Part shown: piece by piece, positions 26,411 to 38,496 of the stretch
How positions within the stretch are numbered: position 1 is the stretch's first letter
Layout of the letters: each line of letters begins with the position of its first letter
From: Escherichia coli
GTDB taxonomy: Bacteria > Pseudomonadota > Gammaproteobacteria > Enterobacterales > Enterobacteriaceae
Assembly (NCBI RefSeq): GCF_036507355.1
Contig: NZ_AP027877.1
Direction: 5' to 3' (one strand)
DNA: 64,000 nucleotides
Made by a program: the position numbers and the translations under genes
The notes under the pieces: model-generated
The model's database searches: none
Seen by the model: only the letters and a program-made list of their open reading frames with translations
Told to the model about the DNA's origin: nothing

Positions 26411-26701
26411 TCACTTACCAATTAATCTCACAGGAAATCCAACTTCCTTACCACAAATACAATCCCAAGTAACACCTCCCAAAATTTTTGATACTTTAGG
26501 CTGCAATGGCATTATTGACATTATAAATTTATCAAGTTCTTCGCTATATTTAATTCCCTTTATATTTCTTATTATTGATATTCTAGCAGTAAAGATAGCC
26601 GTCTCTCCATCTACACTAAAAGTGTAATTACAATTTTTTGTAATCTCATCAAATTCAACCGATAACAAATCAATATTATGGTTTGTAAACACTATGCCCA
26701 T
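26411..26701 (-). CDS. Putative immunity protein for the upstream effector
   Basis: 96-aa ORF whose start overlaps the effector 3' end by 26 nt; call rests on position and size only. Confidence 0.4.
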   Translation of the reverse strand: MGIVFTNHNIDLLSVEFDEITKNCNYTFSVDGETAIFTARISIIRNIKGIKYSEELDKFIMSIMPLQPKVSKILGGVTWDCICGKEVGFPVRLIGK

Positions 26702-28115
26702 TCCATACCTCCTTAAATTCCTGTTCAGTCATCAGATATCGACTCCCTTGATATGGATCATATATTATCACATTCCCAGCATCATCAACACCCTTAACAA
26801 GTACCCAATGCCCTACTTTACTTCCAGAATCCCACATCATTGCTCCCCATGAACCAGTATTACTGAGGGCATATAAACTAGATTCGCTCACTGCATTCCC
26901 TTCCCAGCCGACATCAAATTTATTAAGCTTGTTTGCCAGCGACGTCATAGATGTTAATTCTGTTCCAATTACATTTTGCGTGACAAAAATATACCTATCC
27001 CTAAGCAACATTTCCCCACAGGCCGCTCCACAGCCTGTTAAAGTCAATTGCTTTATTACATTTGAATCTAAAACCTCATCAAATACTGTCCAATTGCCAC
27101 CAGCACCACCTTCTAAAACTACCGGCTCTACAAATACTTTCCCAGAGATATTTTCTTCTGGTATTTTTGCGGGTATCATAAAGCCCCATAAAAAGCTGGC
27201 AAAATGCTCCAGAGCAATCTGATCACCATTATTTGCATCCATTATCATTTTTTTAAGTGCATCCCATGCTTGCCCATTTATCAATGAATCACTAATATTA
27301 AATAAAGCCTGTTCTTTTTCGTTTAAATTTATATTTGCCTGTTCACATAACCCATCTTCGCCTATCGGGCAAGCAACCGTTGCCGTTGCCGTATCTAACA
27401 GAGCATCGAATGTAACTAAGGCTAAATCCGCCACACCATGTAAAGTGGTGATTGCTCCATTCCCCATTTGAGTAAGTGTGTTCTCTACAAACCATTCTCT
27501 AATTTGAGATTTATCTCCTTCAATATCATTCCTGAGAGATTCTCTGATATTCTTTATTGAAAAAAACTCCCCCCATGATTGGTCAGGATCTTTTATTTGG
27601 AATAAATCATTTTTAACCTCAGGTGAAATATCTCCGTCAAAAATATTACCAACAGAGAGGAGATCCTTCAGAAGCAGTAAATCGTGTATTACTTCAGCAG
27701 TCCTTTCATAATTAAAAGTTCTATCAATGACAGAAATCATTGGTGATTTTATTTTGGTATATAATTTACCAAGGCAGTTATGGTTATTAATCCCAACAAC
27801 TGAACCATGATAAGCGACAGGTCTCCCCTCTATTGTTACAGTCGGACTTCCCGTTAAAATAACGCAGTCACCTGTTCCTTGAGATGTACCAGATATGACA
27901 CCTTTACCGGCATTACTTTGAGTTCCAGCAATCACTGAACCAACATTTAAAGCTCTGCATCCACGCGCCCATACCGTTGAACTGTACTGCCTTTCACTAT
28001 CTAAAGTCTGGTAACTGTCAAAAGGAACCTTGTCACCTCCTACTTCACATACATCTGGTGAAGAGCACACGACTTTAAATCTACATTCACCATCCCCGAT
28101 ATGATAGCTACCCAT
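26676..28115 (-). CDS. Putative T6SS effector: N-terminal DUF4150-type PAAR-like domain, C-terminal C39-like papain-fold Cys peptidase domain
   Basis: N-term SPDVC...VPFDSY...GKGVISGTSQG...TVTIEGRPVAYHGSVVGINNHN resembles the DUF4150 pattern; C-term GCGAACGEML and GHWVLVKGVDD...IIYDP resemble Cys and His motifs of C39/papain-like peptidases; downstream of vgrG. Confidence 0.6.
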   Translation of the reverse strand: MGSYHIGDGECRFKVVCSSPDVCEVGGDKVPFDSYQTLDSERQYSSTVWARGCRALNVGSVIAGTQSNAGKGVISGTSQGTGDCVILTGSPTVTIEGRPVAYHGSVVGINNHNCLGKLYTKIKSPMISVIDRTFNYERTAEVIHDLLLLKDLLSVGNIFDGDISPEVKNDLFQIKDPDQSWGEFFSIKNIRESLRNDIEGDKSQIREWFVENTLTQMGNGAITTLHGVADLALVTFDALLDTATATVACPIGEDGLCEQANINLNEKEQALFNISDSLINGQAWDALKKMIMDANNGDQIALEHFASFLWGFMIPAKIPEENISGKVFVEPVVLEGGAGGNWTVFDEVLDSNVIKQLTLTGCGAACGEMLLRDRYIFVTQNVIGTELTSMTSLANKLNKFDVGWEGNAVSESSLYALSNTGSWGAMMWDSGSKVGHWVLVKGVDDAGNVIIYDPYQGSRYLMTEQEFKEVWNGHSVYKP

Positions 28116-28698
28116 AATATTTTTTTCCTATACATTCAGGAATAATACAACTCAGCACTCCTTCTTTCATTCCAAAAAAATCAGGTATTGTCAATCTCCA
28201 GGTAAGGTATATTTCCTGTCGATTTAAATCGATAACCATTGTATCCGCAACAGGTAAGAACATATGAGATGTATTATGCTTGGTTTTTAATATAAGTACA
28301 GGTCGTATACCTGGCAATTTTGTCTTAACAACCTGTTCAAATTTAAAAAAACCTTCAAGAGTGATGTTTTCATCGCCAGAGAGAAACCCCGCGTATATCA
28401 TATCCGGATGAGCACTATTGTAGAACCTCTCATCAAAATCATCCGGCAAATAGGGATAGCGCTTTTCACGCCATACTTCATTGTAGGTTCCTGCATACTG
28501 GAGGCGACTTTTCCACCATCGAGATACAGGGCCAACGCCTTGAAAAAAGTCAGATTCCCCATTAAAAATGGTAGCGTTTTCTGACAAAGCAGAGCTGGTT
28601 ATTTGTGGGAGTTTATATTGACAACTTGTATTAAGTTGGGAAATATCAGGATAATATCCACAACCTACAGGGTTTGCTGAAAAAACCAATTTTCCCAT
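28108..28698 (-). CDS. Hypothetical protein in adaptor/chaperone position between vgrG and the effector
   Basis: 196-aa ORF; stop overlaps effector start by 8 nt; adaptor role (DUF2169-type by analogy) inferred from gene order only. Confidence 0.35.
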   Translation of the reverse strand: MGKLVFSANPVGCGYYPDISQLNTSCQYKLPQITSSALSENATIFNGESDFFQGVGPVSRWWKSRLQYAGTYNEVWREKRYPYLPDDFDERFYNSAHPDMIYAGFLSGDENITLEGFFKFEQVVKTKLPGIRPVLILKTKHNTSHMFLPVADTMVIDLNRQEIYLTWRLTIPDFFGMKEGVLSCIIPECIGKKYYG

Positions 28699-29560
28699 AC
28701 CATCTGGTTGCCAAATACCACCGTAAGCAAGCTCATAGCGTAGAGGAATATTAATAATTTTATCGTGAGATGCTGATCGTTCGCTACCACAATCTTCTGA
28801 TCATGACTGCCTTCCTTCTTACTCCCAACATTCACCGTCTGACCCACACCCACCGTAATTTTCTGGTTATTGGTTATGGTTTCCGTGTGGTCGTGTTTCA
28901 CCGTCGTCGTCCGGTCATTCAGCACCTCCGTATCCATGTTCTTCTGCGCATGGATATACACCTGCTCATTACTGGTGGCGTCTTCAAACCGCAGCTCGTT
29001 AAATCCGCTTCCTTTATAGGTTTTTGACCGGATGGTCATCTGCGTCTTCGTTCCCGGCAGGTCGCCCGGCGAACGGTTGTCCTCATGGTAGGTCCGCCCC
29101 ATGATTATCGGCTGGTCCGGGTCGCCGTTCAGAAAATCAACAATCACCTCCTGGCCCACCCGCGGTATCGCCAGGTTACCGAACCCCGGCCCCGCCCACG
29201 CCTGCGATACCCGCACCCAGCATGAACTCGCCTCCGTCATCCCGTGATAACGGTCCCAGTGGAACTTCACCCGTACCCGGCCATGTTCATCGCAGAAGAT
29301 TTCCTCTCCCGCAGGCCCGGTGACAATGGCACTCTGCGGCCCGTCCACCTTCGGTTTGCTTTGCAGCCGTGGACGCCACGTCCGGTCCGCCGGTATCACC
29401 TCTAACTGATTTCCCAGCGTGGTTCCTCTCCCTTGGCTGCCGTGCAGCGCCTGCGGCTGGTTTCCTGACAGAATGCTCTGTACCACCTGCCATTCACGGT
29501 TCAGCATCTTCTGCGGATGAGGTGTACTGGCAATAGCGGACACTACCATTTGTTCTTTTT

Positions 29561-30379
29561 TTAAGCAGCCATCTGATGATATTTTTCCCTGAAGGCTGCC
29601 GGGGAGATATTCCCCAGACGAGAGTGACGACGCTGACGATTGTAGAAAATCTCAATGTATTCCCGTATTACTGAGATGGCTTCATCCCGGTTATTAAAAC
29701 GATAGTGGCTCAGGCTCTCATTTTTCAGCGTTCCCCAGAAGCTTTCCATCGGAGCGTTGTCGTAACAGTTACCTTTACGCGACATTGATGTTTTCAGACC
29801 AAACTGCTCCTGTATGACCCGGTAATCGTATGCGCAGTACTGTGAACCTCGATCAGAGTGGTGGATTAGCCCGGCAGGTGGGCGCTGTCTCCTGAGCGCC
29901 ATAAACAGGGCTTTACCTGTCAGCTCTTTTGTCATGCGCTCTCCCATGGCGTAGCCGACAATTTCGCACGTATAAACATCTTTGATGCCAGCGAGGTACA
30001 ACCATCCCTCCTGTGTGGCAACATACGTCAGGTCCGCCACCCAGACCTGATTTGGTGCTGTAGGAGCGAACGTCTGGTTCAGCAGATTTGGCGCAACTGG
30101 CAGATTGTGGTTCGAGTTCGTAGTCGCTCTGAACTTGCGTTTCTGCTTACAGCGTAGCCTTAGCTCCTTACGAAGACGTGCCAGTCGGTCACGACCAACG
30201 ATGATGCCATTCTCTGCCAGCTCCGTCTGGAGCCGCCGGGTTCCATATGTTTCGCGAGTGCGGATATGTGCCACCTTAATCTCCAGTTTTAGCCGCTCAT
30301 CACTTTGTTTTCTGTCTGAGGGTTCATGCTGTACCCAGTTGTAATAACCGCTCCTGGATACACCAAATACCTGACACAT
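29561..30379 (-). CDS. IS600-like transposase OrfB (DDE integrase core)
   Basis: 272-aa ORF with IS3-family OrfB sequence; normally expressed as an OrfAB fusion by -1 frameshifting. Confidence 0.8.
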   Translation of the reverse strand: MCQVFGVSRSGYYNWVQHEPSDRKQSDERLKLEIKVAHIRTRETYGTRRLQTELAENGIIVGRDRLARLRKELRLRCKQKRKFRATTNSNHNLPVAPNLLNQTFAPTAPNQVWVADLTYVATQEGWLYLAGIKDVYTCEIVGYAMGERMTKELTGKALFMALRRQRPPAGLIHHSDRGSQYCAYDYRVIQEQFGLKTSMSRKGNCYDNAPMESFWGTLKNESLSHYRFNNRDEAISVIREYIEIFYNRQRRHSRLGNISPAAFREKYHQMAA

Positions 30380-30414
30380 CGCTTCAATGGGAAATTGTTG
30401 TCGCCATTGTTCGA

Positions 30415-30717
30415 TTAACGCGTATTTTTCAGCGACTCCTGTGCAAAATACGCTGTTGCTTTTTTTAATATATCTCGCTCAAGGCGAGCTTCATTTAACG
30501 CCTTACGCAGTTGCAGAATTTCAGATTCCAGTTCAGCCACCGTGCGGGAACCAGGAGTACCGAGCCCTTTTCTGGCGGCGGTAACCCATTGTCCTAAAGT
30601 GCCTTCAGGAAGAGATAATCGGGAAGCGCCTTCACTGATCGAAAGTTGATTTTCAAGAACCGTTCTGACAGCTTCGGCTTTGAACTCTTTAGAGTAACGT
30701 TGGGTTTTTCTGCTCAT
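30415..30717 (-). CDS. IS600-like transposase OrfA (HTH)
   Basis: 100-aa ORF MSRKTQRYSKEFKAEAVR... typical of IS3-family OrfA. Confidence 0.8.
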   Translation of the reverse strand: MSRKTQRYSKEFKAEAVRTVLENQLSISEGASRLSLPEGTLGQWVTAARKGLGTPGSRTVAELESEILQLRKALNEARLERDILKKATAYFAQESLKNTR

Positions 30718-31725
30718 TATTAGCTCCTTCTGATGCCATTCTATTTCAGGAAGGAGTGTCCGTTAAACTCAGGCTACCTCAGGATGCCCCGTCAGCGTAA
30801 ACCGCGTTCCCGGCCACAGCCTCGGCGAATTACTCTGCCCTGTGGCCTTTTCCGCATCACTGCGCAGGCTCTCCATCTGGTACAGCGTGAAATCCTTGCC
30901 GTGCTGCTCATCCTTGAACCTTCCCGGATAATCAAATATTTCATACTGCGCCAGCTGTCCGTTCAGGTTCTCACCCTGCTGCTCATACATCCCCGGCCAG
31001 TCCGGCACCTTAAACGTGTAATCCTGGCTCTGCACCGACGACGGGCGGACATGCGCCTCATAACGGAACATACTGAGACACTCCGTCTCCGCTCCTGCCG
31101 ATGTGTCCGGGTTAAACGGAAGCTCTCCCGCCTGTGACAGCCCCGCCACATCGTCGCACAGCGTCAGCTTCTGCTCCGGACTGTCCGCCGCAAACCGCTC
31201 AAAGAAGAAAATTCCCTCCTCCGCCCACAGCCGGGACAGAAACGCCAGGTCGCTTTCCCCGTACTGGACACAGAACTCCCGCGCCGGATGGTCCTCATAA
31301 AACAGCGGCGTCCACTCCGTGACGCCGTTCTCGTTCAGTAACGTGGCCGATATCGTCCGGATATCCTGCTGCTGGAAGATACGGAAGTTCTGCCGCAGCC
31401 CGCACCGCCATAACGGCGGCTCAATACGCAGGTGATAACGCATCTGCCAGCCGTTATTCTCCTGCATACCAAAACCCGCCACCACGCCGGTGACATAACG
31501 CTGCGCCACTGCGCCCTGCCAGATGGTCAGCGTCGCCTTCTTCTCCAGCAGCATCTCCGCCGTCTGCATAAAAGAGTCGCTGGCAACATCCACACTCATC
31601 ACAAACGGATATGACTGGCTCTGGATTAACCGGAAGCTCACCACTGCAAAGGTGTCCGGCTCCTGGCCGTCAACCTCCAGCGTAAAGCGAAGACCTTTTA
31701 ATGACATAAATACCTCTCAGACATA

Positions 31726-32010
31726 TCAGCCTATATTTACCGTGCCGCCACCGATAACCACGCCGCCGCAGTCAACAGCATCACCGCTTCTGGCGGCGGG
31801 CAGACCGTCAATAAAGACGGTTGAAGAACCTCTGGCGATTTTTCGGGGATGAGGGGGATGCTTCGGTTTAGCATGCGGCGTCAGCGGATCTCCCTGACGG
31901 GCTGCGGGAAGACCATCGATAAAGACGGTGGATGACCCGGCGGTGATGACGGTCTCGTAATAACCGTCGTGCTGGGTGCCTTTGTCGGTGAGTTTGGCTG
32001 CTAAAGGCAT
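31726..32010 (-). CDS. PAAR-repeat protein (T6SS spike tip)
   Basis: 94-aa ORF containing GLPAARQGD and GLPAARSGD; immediately upstream of vgrG on the same strand. Confidence 0.8.
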   Translation of the reverse strand: MPLAAKLTDKGTQHDGYYETVITAGSSTVFIDGLPAARQGDPLTPHAKPKHPPHPRKIARGSSTVFIDGLPAARSGDAVDCGGVVIGGGTVNIG

Positions 32011-32340
32011 AATTCCTCCTGTTCAGAATTTCTACAGCAGCAGGTTTCAAAAATCCGGAGAAATATTCAACGAAATATTAATCACTTCACCGGATATTCT
32101 GATACGTACCTTCACTGGTCTATTTAAGTAATACAAATTGTTGGCGTGTATTAAGTTCCATTTTGTTCTCCTTAATTATGTAAGGAGTATTTGATCATGT
32201 ATAAGCAATAAAAACAGCTTCAGGAAATAAGGAATATCGCAATTTTTAAACATAAAATGCGAATCGTTCAATACAAAAAAGCAGCGTTGCGTAATCTTTC
32301 CCTGATTAAATACGCTACCGCCCTACTCTGATGACATGAT

Positions 32341-32397
32341 CTGCACTGCACTGCACTGCACTGCACTGCACTGCACTGCACTGCACTGCACTGCACT
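32341..32397. repeat. Pentanucleotide tandem repeat (CTGCA) x 11.4
   Basis: Perfect direct repeat read from the sequence; intergenic, ~330 bp upstream of the PAAR start. Confidence 0.95.
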
Positions 32398-32594
32398 ATC
32401 ATATCGACATGTTTCTCTACATGCGAAGAGATGTTTTATTTTCGGATTATATTAAATTGATATTTCATATAAAAAACGAAATTACATCAATCATATAAAT
32501 AATTGTATCAACTTTAATTACTATTCATAGCAAACAAATGGATATCCAGTTAACTACGCCAGTGATTCATTAACATTAACCTCCGGCATTATTG

Positions 32595-33212
32595 TTAAAT
32601 AATGACATTCCTTTTTAATACTTCTTGTAATTTCGGTAACTGACATACAGCATCAGCAATCGCACTGATATTCGTGGCATTATCCTGAAACCATTCATGC
32701 CCAGGCCCCCATGTGCGCATAGTGCAAAGATAACAGTCCACCAGCGTTAGTTGCTCACCAAACGCATAAGGTTCAGCGGTCAATTGTGAATTCAGCCAGA
32801 TATAAAGCGATTTACGATATTCAATAACATTCTTCTTTAACTGTTCGGGTGCGTCAGGAGCCCAACGCTCAGGGTAATCGGCGAAAGTGAATGTTGGATA
32901 GACATTAGCAACCAGCCAGACCAATAGCCGTTGAAACTGCTGACGTTCGGCGCGCCCAACCGGTGGCGCAAGGTCCGGGCGACGATCGAGAACCATCAAT
33001 GCAATCGCCGCTGTCTCCGTCATAATCTCGTCATTTTCCAGCGCCAGTGTCGGAATCTGACACAACGGGTTCAGGGTTTTCAATAACTCGCGTGAAGTTC
33101 CCTCGTGGTCAAAACCACTGACATCAACGAACTGATAAGGAATATCAGCCAGTGTTAGCATCAGCTCACTGATTGTAGAGCCCCATCCGGGTACGCCATA
33201 CACCTTAATCAT
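32595..33212 (-). CDS. yncG: Glutathione S-transferase-like protein
   Basis: 205-aa ORF; synteny next to ansP. Confidence 0.8.
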   Translation of the reverse strand: MIKVYGVPGWGSTISELMLTLADIPYQFVDVSGFDHEGTSRELLKTLNPLCQIPTLALENDEIMTETAAIALMVLDRRPDLAPPVGRAERQQFQRLLVWLVANVYPTFTFADYPERWAPDAPEQLKKNVIEYRKSLYIWLNSQLTAEPYAFGEQLTLVDCYLCTMRTWGPGHEWFQDNATNISAIADAVCQLPKLQEVLKRNVII

Positions 33213-33478
33213 ATGCCCCTCACAATCTTTTAAAGATTAAGTGTAGGACAGTACACAGGTTAACCAGCAAAAGGATTTGTCATTTTTTCGTCAGTTGTAT
33301 TAATCCCCTTCAGGATTGTAAGGGGATGTTTTGCATCGTTTATCGATAACGGGTAGGATGCTGCGCCGATAGTTTTATACCCATAAAGAATAATGGTGAT
33401 AACTATCATCGCCAGGATGAATAAACATTGTTCATGGCAACTTATATGACTTTTTCATTAAAGCAATCAGGGAGAGCA

Positions 33479-34978
33479 ATGAGTAAACACGACACCGACA
33501 CTTCAGATCAACACGCCGCGAAACGCCGCTGGCTTAATGCCCACGAAGAGGGGTATCACAAAGCGATGGGCAATCGCCAGGTACAGATGATCGCCATTGG
33601 CGGCGCGATTGGCACCGGCTTGTTTTTAGGTGCAGGAGCCCGACTGCAAATGGCGGGTCCAGCACTGGCACTGGTTTATTTAATTTGTGGCTTGTTTTCG
33701 TTTTTTATTCTGCGTGCATTGGGTGAGCTGGTGCTACACCGCCCTTCCAGTGGCAGTTTTGTCTCTTATGCCCGTGAGTTTTTGGGTGAGAAAGCCGCTT
33801 ATGTTGCTGGCTGGATGTACTTCATCAACTGGGCGATGACGGGGATTGTTGATATTACCGCCGTCGCTCTGTATATGCATTACTGGGGTGCGTTTGGCGG
33901 CGTGCCGCAGTGGGTCTTTGCGCTCGCTGCGCTGACCATCGTTGGCACCATGAATATGATCGGTGTGAAATGGTTTGCGGAGATGGAGTTCTGGTTTGCG
34001 CTTATTAAAGTGCTCGCCATTGTGACCTTTTTGGTCGTGGGTACAGTGTTCCTCGGTAGTGGTCAGCCGCTGGATGGCAACACGACTGGCTTACATTTAA
34101 TTACCGATAACGGCGGCTTCTTCCCCCACGGTTTGCTGCCTGCTCTGGTATTGATTCAGGGCGTAGTGTTTGCTTTTGCCTCCATTGAAATGGTGGGTAC
34201 AGCTGCCGGAGAATGTAAAGATCCGCAGACCATGGTGCCTAAAGCGATTAACAGTGTGATTTGGCGTATTGGCCTGTTTTACGTCGGCTCCGTGGTGTTG
34301 CTGGTTATGTTATTGCCGTGGAGCGCGTATCAGGCGGGGCAAAGTCCGTTCGTGACGTTTTTCTCTAAACTGGGTGTGCCATATATCGGCAGCATTATGA
34401 ACATTGTGGTGCTGACCGCTGCCCTCTCCAGCCTGAACTCAGGTCTGTACTGCACCGGACGTATTCTGCGCTCAATGGCGATGGGCGGTTCCGCACCGAG
34501 TTTTATGGCGAAAATGAGTCGTCAGCATGTGCCGTATGCTGGGATTCTGGCGACACTGGTTGTGTATGTCGTCGGCGTATTCCTCAACTATCTGGTGCCG
34601 TCGCGCGTATTTGAGATTGTGTTGAACTTCGCGTCGCTGGGAATCATCGCTTCATGGACGTTTATCATCGTGTGTCAGATGCGCCTGCGTAAAGCGATTA
34701 AAGAAGGCAAAGCAGCGGATGTCAGTTTTAAACTGCCTGGCGCGCCCTTCACTTCCTGGCTGACATTACTGTTTTTACTGAGTGTCCTTGTGCTGATGGC
34801 GTTCGATTACCCGAACGGGACTTATACTATCGCGGCGCTGCCGATTATCGGTATTCTGCTGGTTATAGGCTGGTTTGGTGTGCGCAAACGCGTTGCTGAA
34901 ATTCACAGCACTGCGCCAGTCGTCGAGGAAGATGAAGAAAAACAGGAAATTGTGTTTAAGCCTGAAACGGCGAGCTAA
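33479..34978 (+). CDS. ansP: L-asparagine permease (APC family)
   Basis: 499-aa 12-TM ORF from MSKHDTDTSDQ. Confidence 0.9.
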   Translation: MSKHDTDTSDQHAAKRRWLNAHEEGYHKAMGNRQVQMIAIGGAIGTGLFLGAGARLQMAGPALALVYLICGLFSFFILRALGELVLHRPSSGSFVSYAREFLGEKAAYVAGWMYFINWAMTGIVDITAVALYMHYWGAFGGVPQWVFALAALTIVGTMNMIGVKWFAEMEFWFALIKVLAIVTFLVVGTVFLGSGQPLDGNTTGLHLITDNGGFFPHGLLPALVLIQGVVFAFASIEMVGTAAGECKDPQTMVPKAINSVIWRIGLFYVGSVVLLVMLLPWSAYQAGQSPFVTFFSKLGVPYIGSIMNIVVLTAALSSLNSGLYCTGRILRSMAMGGSAPSFMAKMSRQHVPYAGILATLVVYVVGVFLNYLVPSRVFEIVLNFASLGIIASWTFIIVCQMRLRKAIKEGKAADVSFKLPGAPFTSWLTLLFLLSVLVLMAFDYPNGTYTIAALPIIGILLVIGWFGVRKRVAEIHSTAPVVEEDEEKQEIVFKPETAS

Positions 34979-35090
34979 TTGCAAAATTGCCCGGCTACGT
35001 GCCGGGCAAATTTAGATTACTGACGAAGGTGCCGCATGCGGCGTGATAAAAGTCAGGCAAGTCTCTCCGTTTTCACCCTCGCCATATCTA

Positions 35091-36152
35091 TTACAGCGCA
35101 ATACGAATCACATCGTCCGGCTGGGTAGCTTCCTGCTGTTTAGTGGATTTTTGTTTCACACTGACATACAGCGTTTTGCCATCGGCAGACAGCGCCAGGC
35201 TGTTTGGATGAGTCGGCGTATCGAACGTTTTCACCACTTTATAGCTTTTCGCGTCAATCACACTGACTTTACCTGCCTGACGATGCGTTACGTAGGCTTC
35301 ATTACGCGCTGAGTTAAACAGCACAGCCAGTGATTCCGGTGCCGCAACCTTCGCCAGAATATTGCCATTACGGGTATCGACCACTAACACTTCTGCGGCT
35401 TTAGAATCGGTGATAAATGCACGCTGCCTGGCGGTATCAAGGCTAATGTTGATAAAGAAGTGCTCTTTGCCGTCATCCAGCAGCTTTTTACGGCTGAGGA
35501 TTTTATTGTCGGCGGTGTCGATGGTAATCAATTCGCCGTCAGCGTTAGTGGTGTAAAGACGTTTGCCTTTGCTATCCAGCGCCAGACCGGTACTCATTTT
35601 ACCGGTGTTCTGGATGGCGGTTTTCAGTTTGATATTCTCGCCATCAACGACCCAAATCACGCTCTCTTTACCAATACCACTGATGTAAACGGTGTTCGTG
35701 GCATCATCAGCTACCAGCTCACGCGGTTGCAGCGGGCGCACCTCTTCCGTGCGCTTACGATCATCCAGCACCAGACGGCCTTTCACTTCGCCCGTTTTGG
35801 CATCTATCGCCGTGACCGCGCTGTTTACGGTGTTACCAAACCACAACGTCTGAGTCGTGTTATTGATGGTGGCACCAAACGGCTTGAGATCGTTATGGAT
35901 CGCCTGCGTCACTTCCAGAGTGACCGGATCAAGACGATAAACCACGCCACCTTTATCCAGTTTGCGGCTTTGCGAAGTGGCGAGCCACAGCGCGTTTTCT
36001 TGCTGGCTATAAGCCATTTCGTAGGCACCTTTACCTACCGCTTTACGCAGCATTTCTTCTGCGGCCTGCGTACTGAATGATGAAGCAACAAGCAATGAAC
36101 CTAACAGTAATGAACCACGCAGGCGCAATGAAAACAGATGACGTAAATGCAT
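35091..36152 (-). CDS. yncE: Periplasmic seven-bladed beta-propeller protein
   Basis: 353-aa ORF with signal peptide ending TQA-AEEM; synteny. Confidence 0.85.
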   Translation of the reverse strand: MHLRHLFSLRLRGSLLLGSLLVASSFSTQAAEEMLRKAVGKGAYEMAYSQQENALWLATSQSRKLDKGGVVYRLDPVTLEVTQAIHNDLKPFGATINNTTQTLWFGNTVNSAVTAIDAKTGEVKGRLVLDDRKRTEEVRPLQPRELVADDATNTVYISGIGKESVIWVVDGENIKLKTAIQNTGKMSTGLALDSKGKRLYTTNADGELITIDTADNKILSRKKLLDDGKEHFFINISLDTARQRAFITDSKAAEVLVVDTRNGNILAKVAAPESLAVLFNSARNEAYVTHRQAGKVSVIDAKSYKVVKTFDTPTHPNSLALSADGKTLYVSVKQKSTKQQEATQPDDVIRIAL

Positions 36153-36237
36153 GACGACTCCCTTTGATGAACCGATATTTTTGCTGCTTCACAATGCTTC
36201 GCTAAGCGTAATCATCGTTACGCTCTTGTTATAAATG

Positions 36238-36257
36238 GGAATGGTAATCATTATTTA
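36238..36257. promoter_or_regulatory. Putative Fur box in the yncE–yncD divergent intergenic region
   Basis: GGAATGGTAATCATTATTTA resembles the Fur consensus GATAATGATAATCATTATC; second weaker match GTAATCATCGTTAC at 36207-36224. Confidence 0.45.
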
Positions 36258-36393
36258 CTCAAATGTGGAGCATTTCTTGCCGTTACGACTACAATTTTCT
36301 CATTTACTTAACGTATTGTGCCGTTTCATTTTCCATAAATTTACAATTTCATTACCATGACGGCGTTTTCCCATTCTTAACCTGGCTTTTTTC

Positions 36394-38496
36394 ATGAAGA
36401 TTTTTTCCGTCCGACAGACCGTTTTGCCCGCACTGCTTGTCCTTTCCCCCGTTGTTTTTGCCGCTGATGAACAGACCATGATTGTCAGTGCCGCGCCGCA
36501 GGTGGTTTCAGAACTGGATACCCCTGCAGCAGTAAGCGTGGTGGATGGCGAGGAGATGCGCCTGGCAACACCGCGCATTAACTTGTCCGAATCACTGACC
36601 GGCGTGCCTGGTTTGCAGGTACAAAACCGGCAGAACTATGCGCAAGATTTACAGCTGTCGATTCGCGGATTTGGCTCCCGTTCCACTTACGGAATTCGCG
36701 GTATTCGCCTGTATGTGGACGGTATTCCCGCCACCATGCCCGACGGGCAAGGGCAAACATCCAACATCGATTTAAGCAGTGTGCAAAATGTGGAAGTGCT
36801 GCGTGGCCCCTTTTCTGCCCTGTATGGCAACGCGTCTGGCGGTGTAATGAATGTCACCACCCAGACCGGACAACAGCCACCAACCATTGAAGCCAGTAGT
36901 TACTACGGCAGTTTTGGCAGCTGGCGCTATGGGCTGAAAGCAACGGGCGCAACGGGAGACGGCACACAGCCCGGCGATGTTGATTACACCGTCTCAACCA
37001 CGCGTTTTACGACCCACGGCTATCGTGACCATAGTGGCGCACAGAAAAATTTAGCCAATGCCAAACTGGGCGTACGCATTGATGAAGCCAGCAAATTAAG
37101 CCTGATTTTCAATAGTGTGGATATCAAAGCAGATGACCCAGGTGGGCTAACCAAAGCAGAATGGAAGGCGAATCCACAACAAGCGCCTCGTGCAGAACAG
37201 TACGACACGCGAAAAACCATCAAGCAAACTCAGGCTGGGTTGCGCTATGAACGTAGCCTGAGTTCGCGGGATGATATGAGTGTGATGATGTATGCCGGAG
37301 AGCGAGAAACGACCCAGTACCAGTCAATACCCATGGCACCACAACTTAACCCGTCACATGCGGGCGGCGTGATTACCCTGCAACGCCATTACCAGGGAAT
37401 AGACAGCCGCTGGACACACCGTGGTGAACTGGGCGTTCCGGTCACGTTCACTACCGGCCTGAACTACGAAAACATGAGTGAAAACCGCAAGGGCTACAAT
37501 AACTTCCGCCTGAATAGCGGCATGCCGGAGTACGGGCAAAAAGGTGAGTTGCGTCGCGACGAACGCAATCTGATGTGGAACATCGATCCCTATTTACAGA
37601 CGCAGTGGCAGCTGAGCGAAAAACTGTCGCTGGATGCTGGCGTGCGCTACAGCTCCGTGTGGTTTGATTCCAACGACCATTACGTTACTCCGGGTAACGG
37701 CGATGACAGCGGTGATGCCAGTTATCACAAATGGCTACCTGCCGGATCGCTAAAATATGCAATGACCGATGCCTGGAATATCTATCTGGCAGCCGGGCGT
37801 GGTTTTGAAACGCCGACGATTAATGAGCTGTCTTATCGCGCTGATGGGCAAAGCGGTATGAACTTTGGTTTAAAACCATCCACCAACGATACAATTGAGA
37901 TCGGCAGTAAAACGCGTATTGGTGATGGGCTGCTTAGTCTCGCATTGTTCCAGACCGACACCGATGATGAAATTGTTGTCGATAGCAGTAGCGGTGGGCG
38001 TACGACTTACAAAAATGCTGGAAAGACCCGTCGTCAAGGTGCTGAACTGGCATGGGATCAACGTTTCGCGGGAGATTTTCGCGTAAACGCGTCCTGGACC
38101 TGGCTTGATGCGACCTATCGCAGCAATGTTTGCAATGAACAGGATTGTAACGGTAATCGGATGCCTGGGATCGCCCGTAATATGGGCTTTGCGTCGATAG
38201 GTTATGTACCGGAAGATGGCTGGTATGCAGGCACGGAAGCGCGTTATATGGGCGATATTATGGCAGATGATGAAAATACGGCCAAAGCGCCGTCTTATAC
38301 TCTCATCGGCTTATTCACCGGGTATAAATACAATTACCACAATTTAACTGTGGATTTATTTGGTCGTGTCGATAATTTATTCGATAAAGAATACGTTGGT
38401 TCTGTCATTGTCAATGAGTCAAACGGGCGATATTACGAACCTGCGCCCGGGCGAAATTATGGTGTCGGCGTGAATATCGCATGGCGATTTGAGTAA
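36394..38496 (+). CDS. yncD: TonB-dependent outer membrane receptor
   Basis: 700-aa ORF with signal peptide, plug domain and C-terminal aromatic residue (AWRFE). Confidence 0.85.
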   Translation: MKIFSVRQTVLPALLVLSPVVFAADEQTMIVSAAPQVVSELDTPAAVSVVDGEEMRLATPRINLSESLTGVPGLQVQNRQNYAQDLQLSIRGFGSRSTYGIRGIRLYVDGIPATMPDGQGQTSNIDLSSVQNVEVLRGPFSALYGNASGGVMNVTTQTGQQPPTIEASSYYGSFGSWRYGLKATGATGDGTQPGDVDYTVSTTRFTTHGYRDHSGAQKNLANAKLGVRIDEASKLSLIFNSVDIKADDPGGLTKAEWKANPQQAPRAEQYDTRKTIKQTQAGLRYERSLSSRDDMSVMMYAGERETTQYQSIPMAPQLNPSHAGGVITLQRHYQGIDSRWTHRGELGVPVTFTTGLNYENMSENRKGYNNFRLNSGMPEYGQKGELRRDERNLMWNIDPYLQTQWQLSEKLSLDAGVRYSSVWFDSNDHYVTPGNGDDSGDASYHKWLPAGSLKYAMTDAWNIYLAAGRGFETPTINELSYRADGQSGMNFGLKPSTNDTIEIGSKTRIGDGLLSLALFQTDTDDEIVVDSSSGGRTTYKNAGKTRRQGAELAWDQRFAGDFRVNASWTWLDATYRSNVCNEQDCNGNRMPGIARNMGFASIGYVPEDGWYAGTEARYMGDIMADDENTAKAPSYTLIGLFTGYKYNYHNLTVDLFGRVDNLFDKEYVGSVIVNESNGRYYEPAPGRNYGVGVNIAWRFE

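Follow-up and report, generated by a model that had tools for sequence, protein, structure and literature searches.

A variable CTGCA pentanucleotide repeat upstream of a T6SS PAAR-vgrG module in Escherichia coli

Short tandem repeats in bacteria and the CTGCA tract

Tandem repeats with short units form the basis of MLVA typing in E. coli and Shigella, where the VNTR loci in use include the 6-7-bp loci of O157 and the generic CVN loci; to our knowledge, none of the E. coli schemes contains a pentanucleotide locus. Repeats lying upstream of genes can serve as SSR contingency loci, as is the case for the 7-bp repeats of hmw1A/hmw2A and the TA repeats of hifA/B in H. influenzae, the TAAA repeats of nadA in N. 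meningitidis and the AGAT repeats in the 5'-UTR of uspA2 in M. catarrhalis. At these loci the tract is maintained across the species, it lies within or beside a promoter or leader that has been mapped, and its effect on expression has been measured. Pentanucleotide repeats are known from the opa genes of Neisseria, in which CTCTT units inside the signal-peptide coding region switch the reading frame. We know of no use of SSR contingency loci by E. coli. Mutation-rate work on E. coli MLVA VNTR loci is available (PMC3777172), and CTG/CAG triplet repeats propagated in E. coli form hairpins (reviewed in PMC7015867). According to a review that cites Gur-Arie et al. (2000), E. coli K-12 is without pentanucleotide repeats (PMC7015867). 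In the literature searched, the coverage of which was incomplete, there was no description of the locus reported here or of any pentanucleotide VNTR in E. coli; the combination of pentanucleotide, MLVA and E. coli led only to the general review PMC7015867, and nothing specific was found on strain MS20657 or on yncG plus vgrG.

The window analysed here is a stretch of 64 kb of E. coli DNA, in which positions 32341-32397 read, with zero deviations, as (CTGCA)x11 followed by CT. Tandem Repeats Finder delimited the same interval (period 5, 11.4 copies, 100% matches, 0% indels, score 114) and placed it by far first among the 16 tandem arrays of the window, the runner-up scoring 51. The perfect eleven-copy repeat reported by the first-pass annotation is thus borne out by direct reading as well as by the program, and eleven perfect copies of CTGCA cannot have come about by chance in 64 kb. 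The genes yncG, PAAR and vgrG have the minus strand as their sense strand, and on it the tract reads (TGCAG)n. Its GC content is 59.6%, compared with 31.7% for the spacer without the tract and 48.4% for the whole window. The short flanking inverted sequences that had also been pointed out are present: CATGAT (32335..32340) on the left pairs with ATCATA (32398..32403) on the right, neither being assigned a strand, to give the 5-bp inverted repeat ATGAT/ATCAT, and both arms are found in two-copy alleles too. Read on the minus strand, the bases of the right arm form a -10-like TATGAT and also contain the start codon (ATG) of an ORF of 44 codons, which is spurious. The locus as a whole can be described by the flank-anchored pattern GACATGAT(CTGCA)nCTATCATATCG. 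Given the uninterrupted head-to-tail units, within the 1-9 nt of microsatellites, found by Tandem Repeats Finder, and the whole-unit differences in copy number between close relatives with the same flanks, the CTGCA tract is genuinely a hypermutable microsatellite.

A pentanucleotide repeat of this length had been regarded as unusual in enterobacteria, and this view holds. A scan for (CTGCA)x6 in 100,044 species-representative genomes returned 69 stretches, none of them in Escherichia, and the sole stretch from Enterobacterales belonged to a Symbiopectobacterium. Repeats of (CTGCA)x6 or longer occurred mostly in Betaproteobacteria, Xanthomonadales and Actinobacteria. In addition, three MAGs (isolates Cli_8, Cli_14 and Cli_21) contained many sub-kilobase contigs made up largely of the (CTGCA) repeat, which look like contamination or satellite and not like bacterial sequence.

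With the VNTRs used in MLVA the tract shares perfect head-to-tail short units, conserved flanks and whole-unit changes between very close relatives; like them, it can serve to tell clones apart at a fine scale and does not have to be functional. It differs from them in its 5-bp unit and in the confinement of expansion to one clone and the window strain, with 99% of carriers unexpanded. The pentanucleotide unit and the whole-unit slippage also recall opa, although no credible ORF is found at the CTGCA tract.

Copy number across genomes and within a blood/CSF clone

The spacer that holds the tract is present in approximately 690 of the 5,426 complete E. coli genomes, and copy number was either read from fetched loci or sized from the match span in the record. 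More than two copies were found in six complete genomes, all belonging to one clone: MS20657, isolated from blood, carries 11 copies, while N47, N39, N24, N64 and N17, all isolated from CSF, carry 8, 6, 5, 5 and 3 copies, respectively. Every other genome read or sized had two copies, a finding that covers the best 60 matches for each of two flank haplotypes, a sample of 60 drawn from all parts of the ranking and another 25 loci taken from assemblies both draft and complete. By reading or sizing, approximately 99% of the spacer carriers are at two copies, including CFT073, Nissle 1917, LF82, ABU83972, 536, MCJCHV-1, O145:H28 and 042. A metagenome scan for the left flank followed by at least three copies yielded two contigs; their tracts have 3 and 5 copies, and each contig shows the haplotype of MS20657. 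Other lineages carry a degenerate proto-repeat (CTGCACTGCG in UM146, CTGCACGGCG in Ec-U18), which together with its immediate left flank ranks with the least conserved parts of the spacer; the 20 bp adjoining it are among the most variable and contain a 5-bp deletion in Ec-U18. The comparison of repeat number across isolates proposed by the first-pass annotation thus gave a variable and not an invariant number within the clone. A long tract, on the other hand, is not maintained across lineages: outside the six-genome clone, all complete genomes with the spacer that were read or sized have two copies, and other lineages have degenerate ones.

The six expanded genomes were found to be very closely related. 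A 41.7-kb alignment around the tract contained only 6 SNP columns, and the other differences were a few homopolymer indels, a 5-nt narZ indel, a shared 87-bp deletion and a 1,250-bp deletion. The tract occurs in five different states in the same genomes, which implies at least four changes. N47 and N39 are sisters, having one SNP and the 87-bp deletion in common, yet they carry 8 and 6 copies. A single locus of 15-55 bp has changed about as often as 40 kb gained substitutions, and by a rough estimate the tract rate would be about four orders of magnitude above the per-site rate. Slipped-strand change of copy number, as had been suggested for this repeat, is supported by the spread of copy numbers (11, 8, 6, 5, 5, 3) among genomes whose flanks show no more than 6 SNP columns over approximately 40 kb, and by the 3-copy and 5-copy metagenome contigs; the variation is likely to be due to slippage. 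All members of the clone are invasive isolates (blood, CSF), and the clone carries an intact PAAR-vgrG-M35 metallopeptidase module. The 87-bp deletion of N47 and N39 lies in narH and the 1,250-bp deletion of MS20657 in pqqU, while yncG is annotated as frameshifted in six out of six clone genomes.

It could be argued that the long tract and its length differences are repeat-resolution errors of assembly or sequencing, given that five of the six variable genomes originate from one long-read project and show 1-nt homopolymer indels typical of sequencing error. However, the differences are exact multiples of 5 bp, amount to up to 40 bp and are found in perfect arrays, and the expanded tract is also present in the finished genome of MS20657, in the window and in two independent metagenome assemblies. 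Moreover, the tract of 57 bp is shorter than a read on any platform. An artefact is accordingly the least credible of the explanations considered here, and we regard it as extremely improbable.

The tract of the window appears to have a history of its own. Its flanks are 100% identical over a 341-bp query to strains such as PS10-3 and A16, in which the repeat is perfect and counts exactly two units. From the expanded clone, the window is distinguished by one SNP 13 bp left of the tract, by another 34 bp right of it, and by a divergence of 3-4% over 3 kb on either side. Since transfer from the clone would need a conversion tract of less than about 105 bp, these sequence comparisons make it much more likely that the window tract expanded independently of the clone than that it was acquired by recombination. 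The best identity of the segment 32600-40600 of the window (yncG-ansP-yncE-pqqU-mcbR-curA) among the 5,426 complete E. coli genomes was only 99.4% over these 8 kb, and the lineage of the window is thus unrepresented among the RefSeq complete genomes of the species. An exact-protein look-up of the truncated VgrG fragment gave no match, and exact look-ups with YncG, PqqU and PAAR returned alleles too widespread to inform on the window lineage, with all tracts at two copies.

Locus layout and possible control of PAAR-vgrG

The spacer (32011-32594) separates two minus-strand genes, yncG and a T6SS PAAR gene. Along the minus strand, the yncG stop codon precedes the tract by 198 bp and the PAAR start follows it after 330 bp, so that the AT-rich intergenic site about 330 bp upstream of PAAR described by the first-pass annotation was located correctly. 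On one side of the locus stands the PAAR module and on the other, together with ansP, yncE and pqqU, yncG (32595..33212, minus strand), which encodes a 205-aa protein of the glutathione S-transferase family. The segment from the yncG stop codon to the tract (32398..32594, minus strand) is AT-rich (27% GC) and contains two minus-strand promoter-like sites. Toward PAAR, a 156-bp remnant of the 5' end of ISAs1/ISEc1 (H-repeat) occupies 32151..32306 on the minus strand; it extends from the end of the element to a point shortly beyond the start codon of the transposase gene, and it points toward PAAR. Its assignment is based on thousands of ISAs1 matches at query positions 141-296, and its extent was judged from the position relative to the transposase CDS in K-12. 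Some 35 bp lie between the IS end and the tract, which is outside the element and belongs to the backbone side of the junction with the island. The remnant is fused to the PAAR leader, which suggests that it is an internally deleted IS at the island boundary; in Ec-U18, this junction is occupied by a complete ISAs1. The PAAR-proximal leader itself (32011..32150, minus strand) includes a GGAGG ribosome-binding site and is common to the second PAAR module of PS10-3, which has no pentanucleotide tract upstream. PS10-3 carries two tandem PAAR-vgrG modules with an ISAs1 pseudogene between them. As both PAAR genes have the same leader of approximately 150 nt, the leader travels with the module.

A PAAR-vgrG operon had been placed downstream of the tract by the first-pass annotation, and for the PAAR gene this stands: the gene (31726..32010, minus strand, 94 aa) is intact and matches NCBIfam NF033420 with 156.5 bits against a cut-off of 124. 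The operon, however, is not intact in the window. The vgrG gene is interrupted by an IS3-family element (approximately 29520..30781, minus strand; orfA 30415-30717, orfB 29561-30379; ends approximate to a few bases), with the 5' part, encoding aa 1-310, at approximately 30778/30782..31707 and the continuation, encoding aa ~306-561, on the far side of the element at 28758..~29519/29525, both on the minus strand. The IS3-vgrG junction was found in none of the 5,426 complete E. coli genomes searched, and hence it is private to the lineage of the window. Downstream of vgrG, a DUF2169 adaptor (28108-28698) and a 479-aa Tox-PAAR-like protein (26676-28115) are encoded on the minus strand; neither gave an NCBIfam match, and the Tox-PAAR-like protein showed weak peptidase-C39 matches. 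In drafts with an identical Tox-PAAR-like effector (e.g., GCA_905398585.1 and GCA_016660925.1) the contigs stop approximately 1.4 kb upstream, short of the tract, which is where they would break off if their vgrG carried this IS insertion too.

The tract had further been proposed to set promoter spacing and phasing, a claim that our analysis does not support. A sigma-70 consensus scan detected the same four sites in the 11-copy and the 2-copy allele, and in neither allele did a site span the tract, i.e., hold it between its hexamers. Four sites compare with 2.8 and 3.1 expected from shuffled sequence, and no excess is apparent. The promoter-like sites include, on the minus strand, one abutting the tract (32427..32398; 9/12 matches, with -35-like TTCGCA and -10-like TATGAT), one lying 45 bp further upstream (32473..32446; 10/12 consensus matches) and one in the ISAs1 remnant (32203..32175). 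Informal inspection of the tract and its flanks by eye revealed no LexA-, Fur- or CRP-like motifs.

A looser form of regulation should also be considered, in which the tract is a tuning element and a change by one 5-bp unit alters transcription or translation of PAAR-vgrG, resulting in heritable and reversible variation of the T6SS spike and effector. Each unit amounts to about half a helical turn, and units could re-phase or distance upstream elements with respect to a downstream promoter, or they could lengthen a 5'-UTR hairpin. The tract is indeed upstream of PAAR on the sense strand, with the -10-like and -35-like hexamers abutting it and the 10/12 site beyond, but the tract is not part of the spacer of any promoter-like site, and such sites are as numerous as expected by chance. 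If the upstream sites were used, the tract would begin a long leader, and any transcript through it would fold strongly (predicted RNA fold of the 131-nt tract region: -55.5 kcal/mol, z = -5.4); yet the 330 bp to PAAR hold the ISAs1 5' end, which brings a promoter-like site and an RBS/ATG of its own, and the 150-nt leader next to PAAR serves another PAAR module without the tract. The hypervariable copy number in one clone with an intact PAAR-vgrG-M35 module and the occurrence of two independent expansions also speak for such tuning. They have to be weighed against the fact that about 99% of the spacer carriers have two copies, that the copies are degenerate in other lineages, and that the window strain combines the longest tract with an IS-disrupted vgrG. 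Since vgrG is inactivated there by the IS3-family insertion, it would matter little to the T6SS of this 11-copy strain whether the operon is controlled. We regard tuning as unlikely; judged from sequence, control of PAAR-vgrG expression by the tract would be a minority possibility, unproven rather than refuted.

Like hmw1A/hmw2A, nadA, uspA2 and hifA/B, the CTGCA tract is a hypermutable short repeat 5' of a surface- or virulence-related operon that could alter distance, phasing or leader structure. In contrast to them, it is not maintained in the species, and it is separated from the gene by an IS remnant. The only reading frame through the tract is not conserved, and consensus scans gave no sigma-70-like site in which unit changes would alter -35/-10 spacing; with its lack of cross-lineage maintenance the tract resembles the upstream contingency repeats in position only.

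Another possibility is that the tract encodes part of a phase-variable small protein, namely the product of a minus-strand ORF (32402..32268, 44 aa, MIVQC(SAVQC)n...) the frame of which is shifted by unit changes. The ATG is placed exactly at the tract edge, but no Shine-Dalgarno sequence precedes it and the ORF runs into the ISAs1 remnant. Copy numbers 2, 5, 8 and 11 share one frame, while 3 and 6 differ; six of the nine expanded alleles (11, 11, 8, 5, 5, 5) are in the two-copy frame, a post hoc count of alleles that are not independent. The length of the ORF, on the other hand, is not conserved, as the stop codon of the window is missing in UM146 (aligned sequences read by hand), the ORF of Ec-U18 has a 5-bp deletion inside it and is frameshifted, and few parts of the spacer are as poorly conserved as this one. 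A protein of this kind is therefore very improbable, and the small ORF through the tract was rejected as not conserved.

Two further candidates were discarded. A Rho-independent terminator for yncG would require a T run, whereas the hairpin present is followed by ATCATGTCATCAGAG, in which there is none, and a minus-strand terminator scan found nothing. A known structured RNA was sought by an Rfam scan of 28000-37000 (E <= 1), which gave one spurious mir-33 match on the tract (21.2 bits, with the gathering score at 50; E = 0.47).

Hairpins and a proposed route of expansion

Each unit contains the palindrome TGCA, and single strands of the tract are capable of forming hairpins. The minus-strand DNA fold of the tract reached -27.7 kcal/mol (z = -7.4), with 4-bp stems and single mismatches and with the flanking arms extending the hairpin, and the plus-strand fold reached -14.2 kcal/mol (z = -2.9), while the two-copy allele gave no signal (z = -0.5). 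Hairpin-stabilised slipped intermediates are an accepted route to repeat instability (PMC7015867). The tract is similar to CTG/CAG repeats in its quasi-palindromic unit, the slipped strands of which fold into mismatched hairpins that promote expansion and contraction; it differs in its 5-nt unit (the TGCA palindrome plus one base) and in being chromosomal and natural, not cloned. With regard to repair, Parker and Marinus are said to have found in 1992 that 5-nt loops are poorly recognised by the MutS-dependent mismatch repair of E. coli.

We consider it probable that the tract is a recently expanded hypermutable pentanucleotide VNTR and a neutral hotspot, not a designed regulatory element. The ancestral state in E. 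coli would be the two-copy proto-repeat CATGAT-CTGCA-CTGCA-CT-ATCATA, situated in a poorly conserved AT-rich spacer where the yncG-side backbone borders on the ISAs1-bounded orphan T6SS PAAR-vgrG module. Rare replication slippage may then have extended the perfect allele beyond its two copies, after which whole 5-bp units would be quickly gained and lost. The TGCA palindrome of each unit would allow the slipped single strand to fold into a hairpin with 4-bp stems and one mismatch, extended by the ATGAT/ATCAT arms, and 5-nt loops might escape mismatch repair and favour instability. No adaptive control of PAAR-vgrG would be involved, and the variation would be selectively neutral.

A neutral hotspot is not the only way to read the distribution of the repeat. 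The sole variable clone has the intact PAAR-vgrG-M35 module and consists of invasive isolates, which would be compatible with selection for variation, and two separate expansions at one site, in a species otherwise without pentanucleotide repeats, could likewise reflect selection and not just intrinsic mutability. The tract is also on the sense strand for read-through from yncG or for transcripts from the two upstream promoter-like sites, and an RNA hairpin could affect expression. In the strongest version, E. coli would have evolved, at least twice, a hypermutable tract at the entry of an orphan T6SS PAAR-vgrG-effector module that stochastically tunes expression within a clone; we consider this quite improbable, and less likely than tuning as such. 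If true, half-helical-turn steps or a growing leader hairpin would tune the spike and effector, possibly aiding invasive blood/CSF lineages. The neutral VNTR remains our preferred reading, and the most likely outcome of expression measurements would be no effect, which would leave an ordinary neutral VNTR in an unusual host.

In either case, the locus is a natural chromosomal repeat of E. coli, a species in which long arrays of short units are very rare; its length demonstrably changes inside a clone, and it arose twice from the same two-copy seed. It could be used as a very fine-scale marker for the blood/CSF clone, and it offers a natural substrate for the study of how a two-copy proto-repeat crosses to instability through hairpin-assisted slippage and 5-nt loops, as well as a candidate, cheap to test, for a T6SS accessory module modulated by a repeat. 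Finally, N39 has lost one copy from a CTGGT CTGGT repeat (5-nt unit, two copies) in narZ; the gene is annotated as frameshifted in this strain, and the loss may be another small slippage event.
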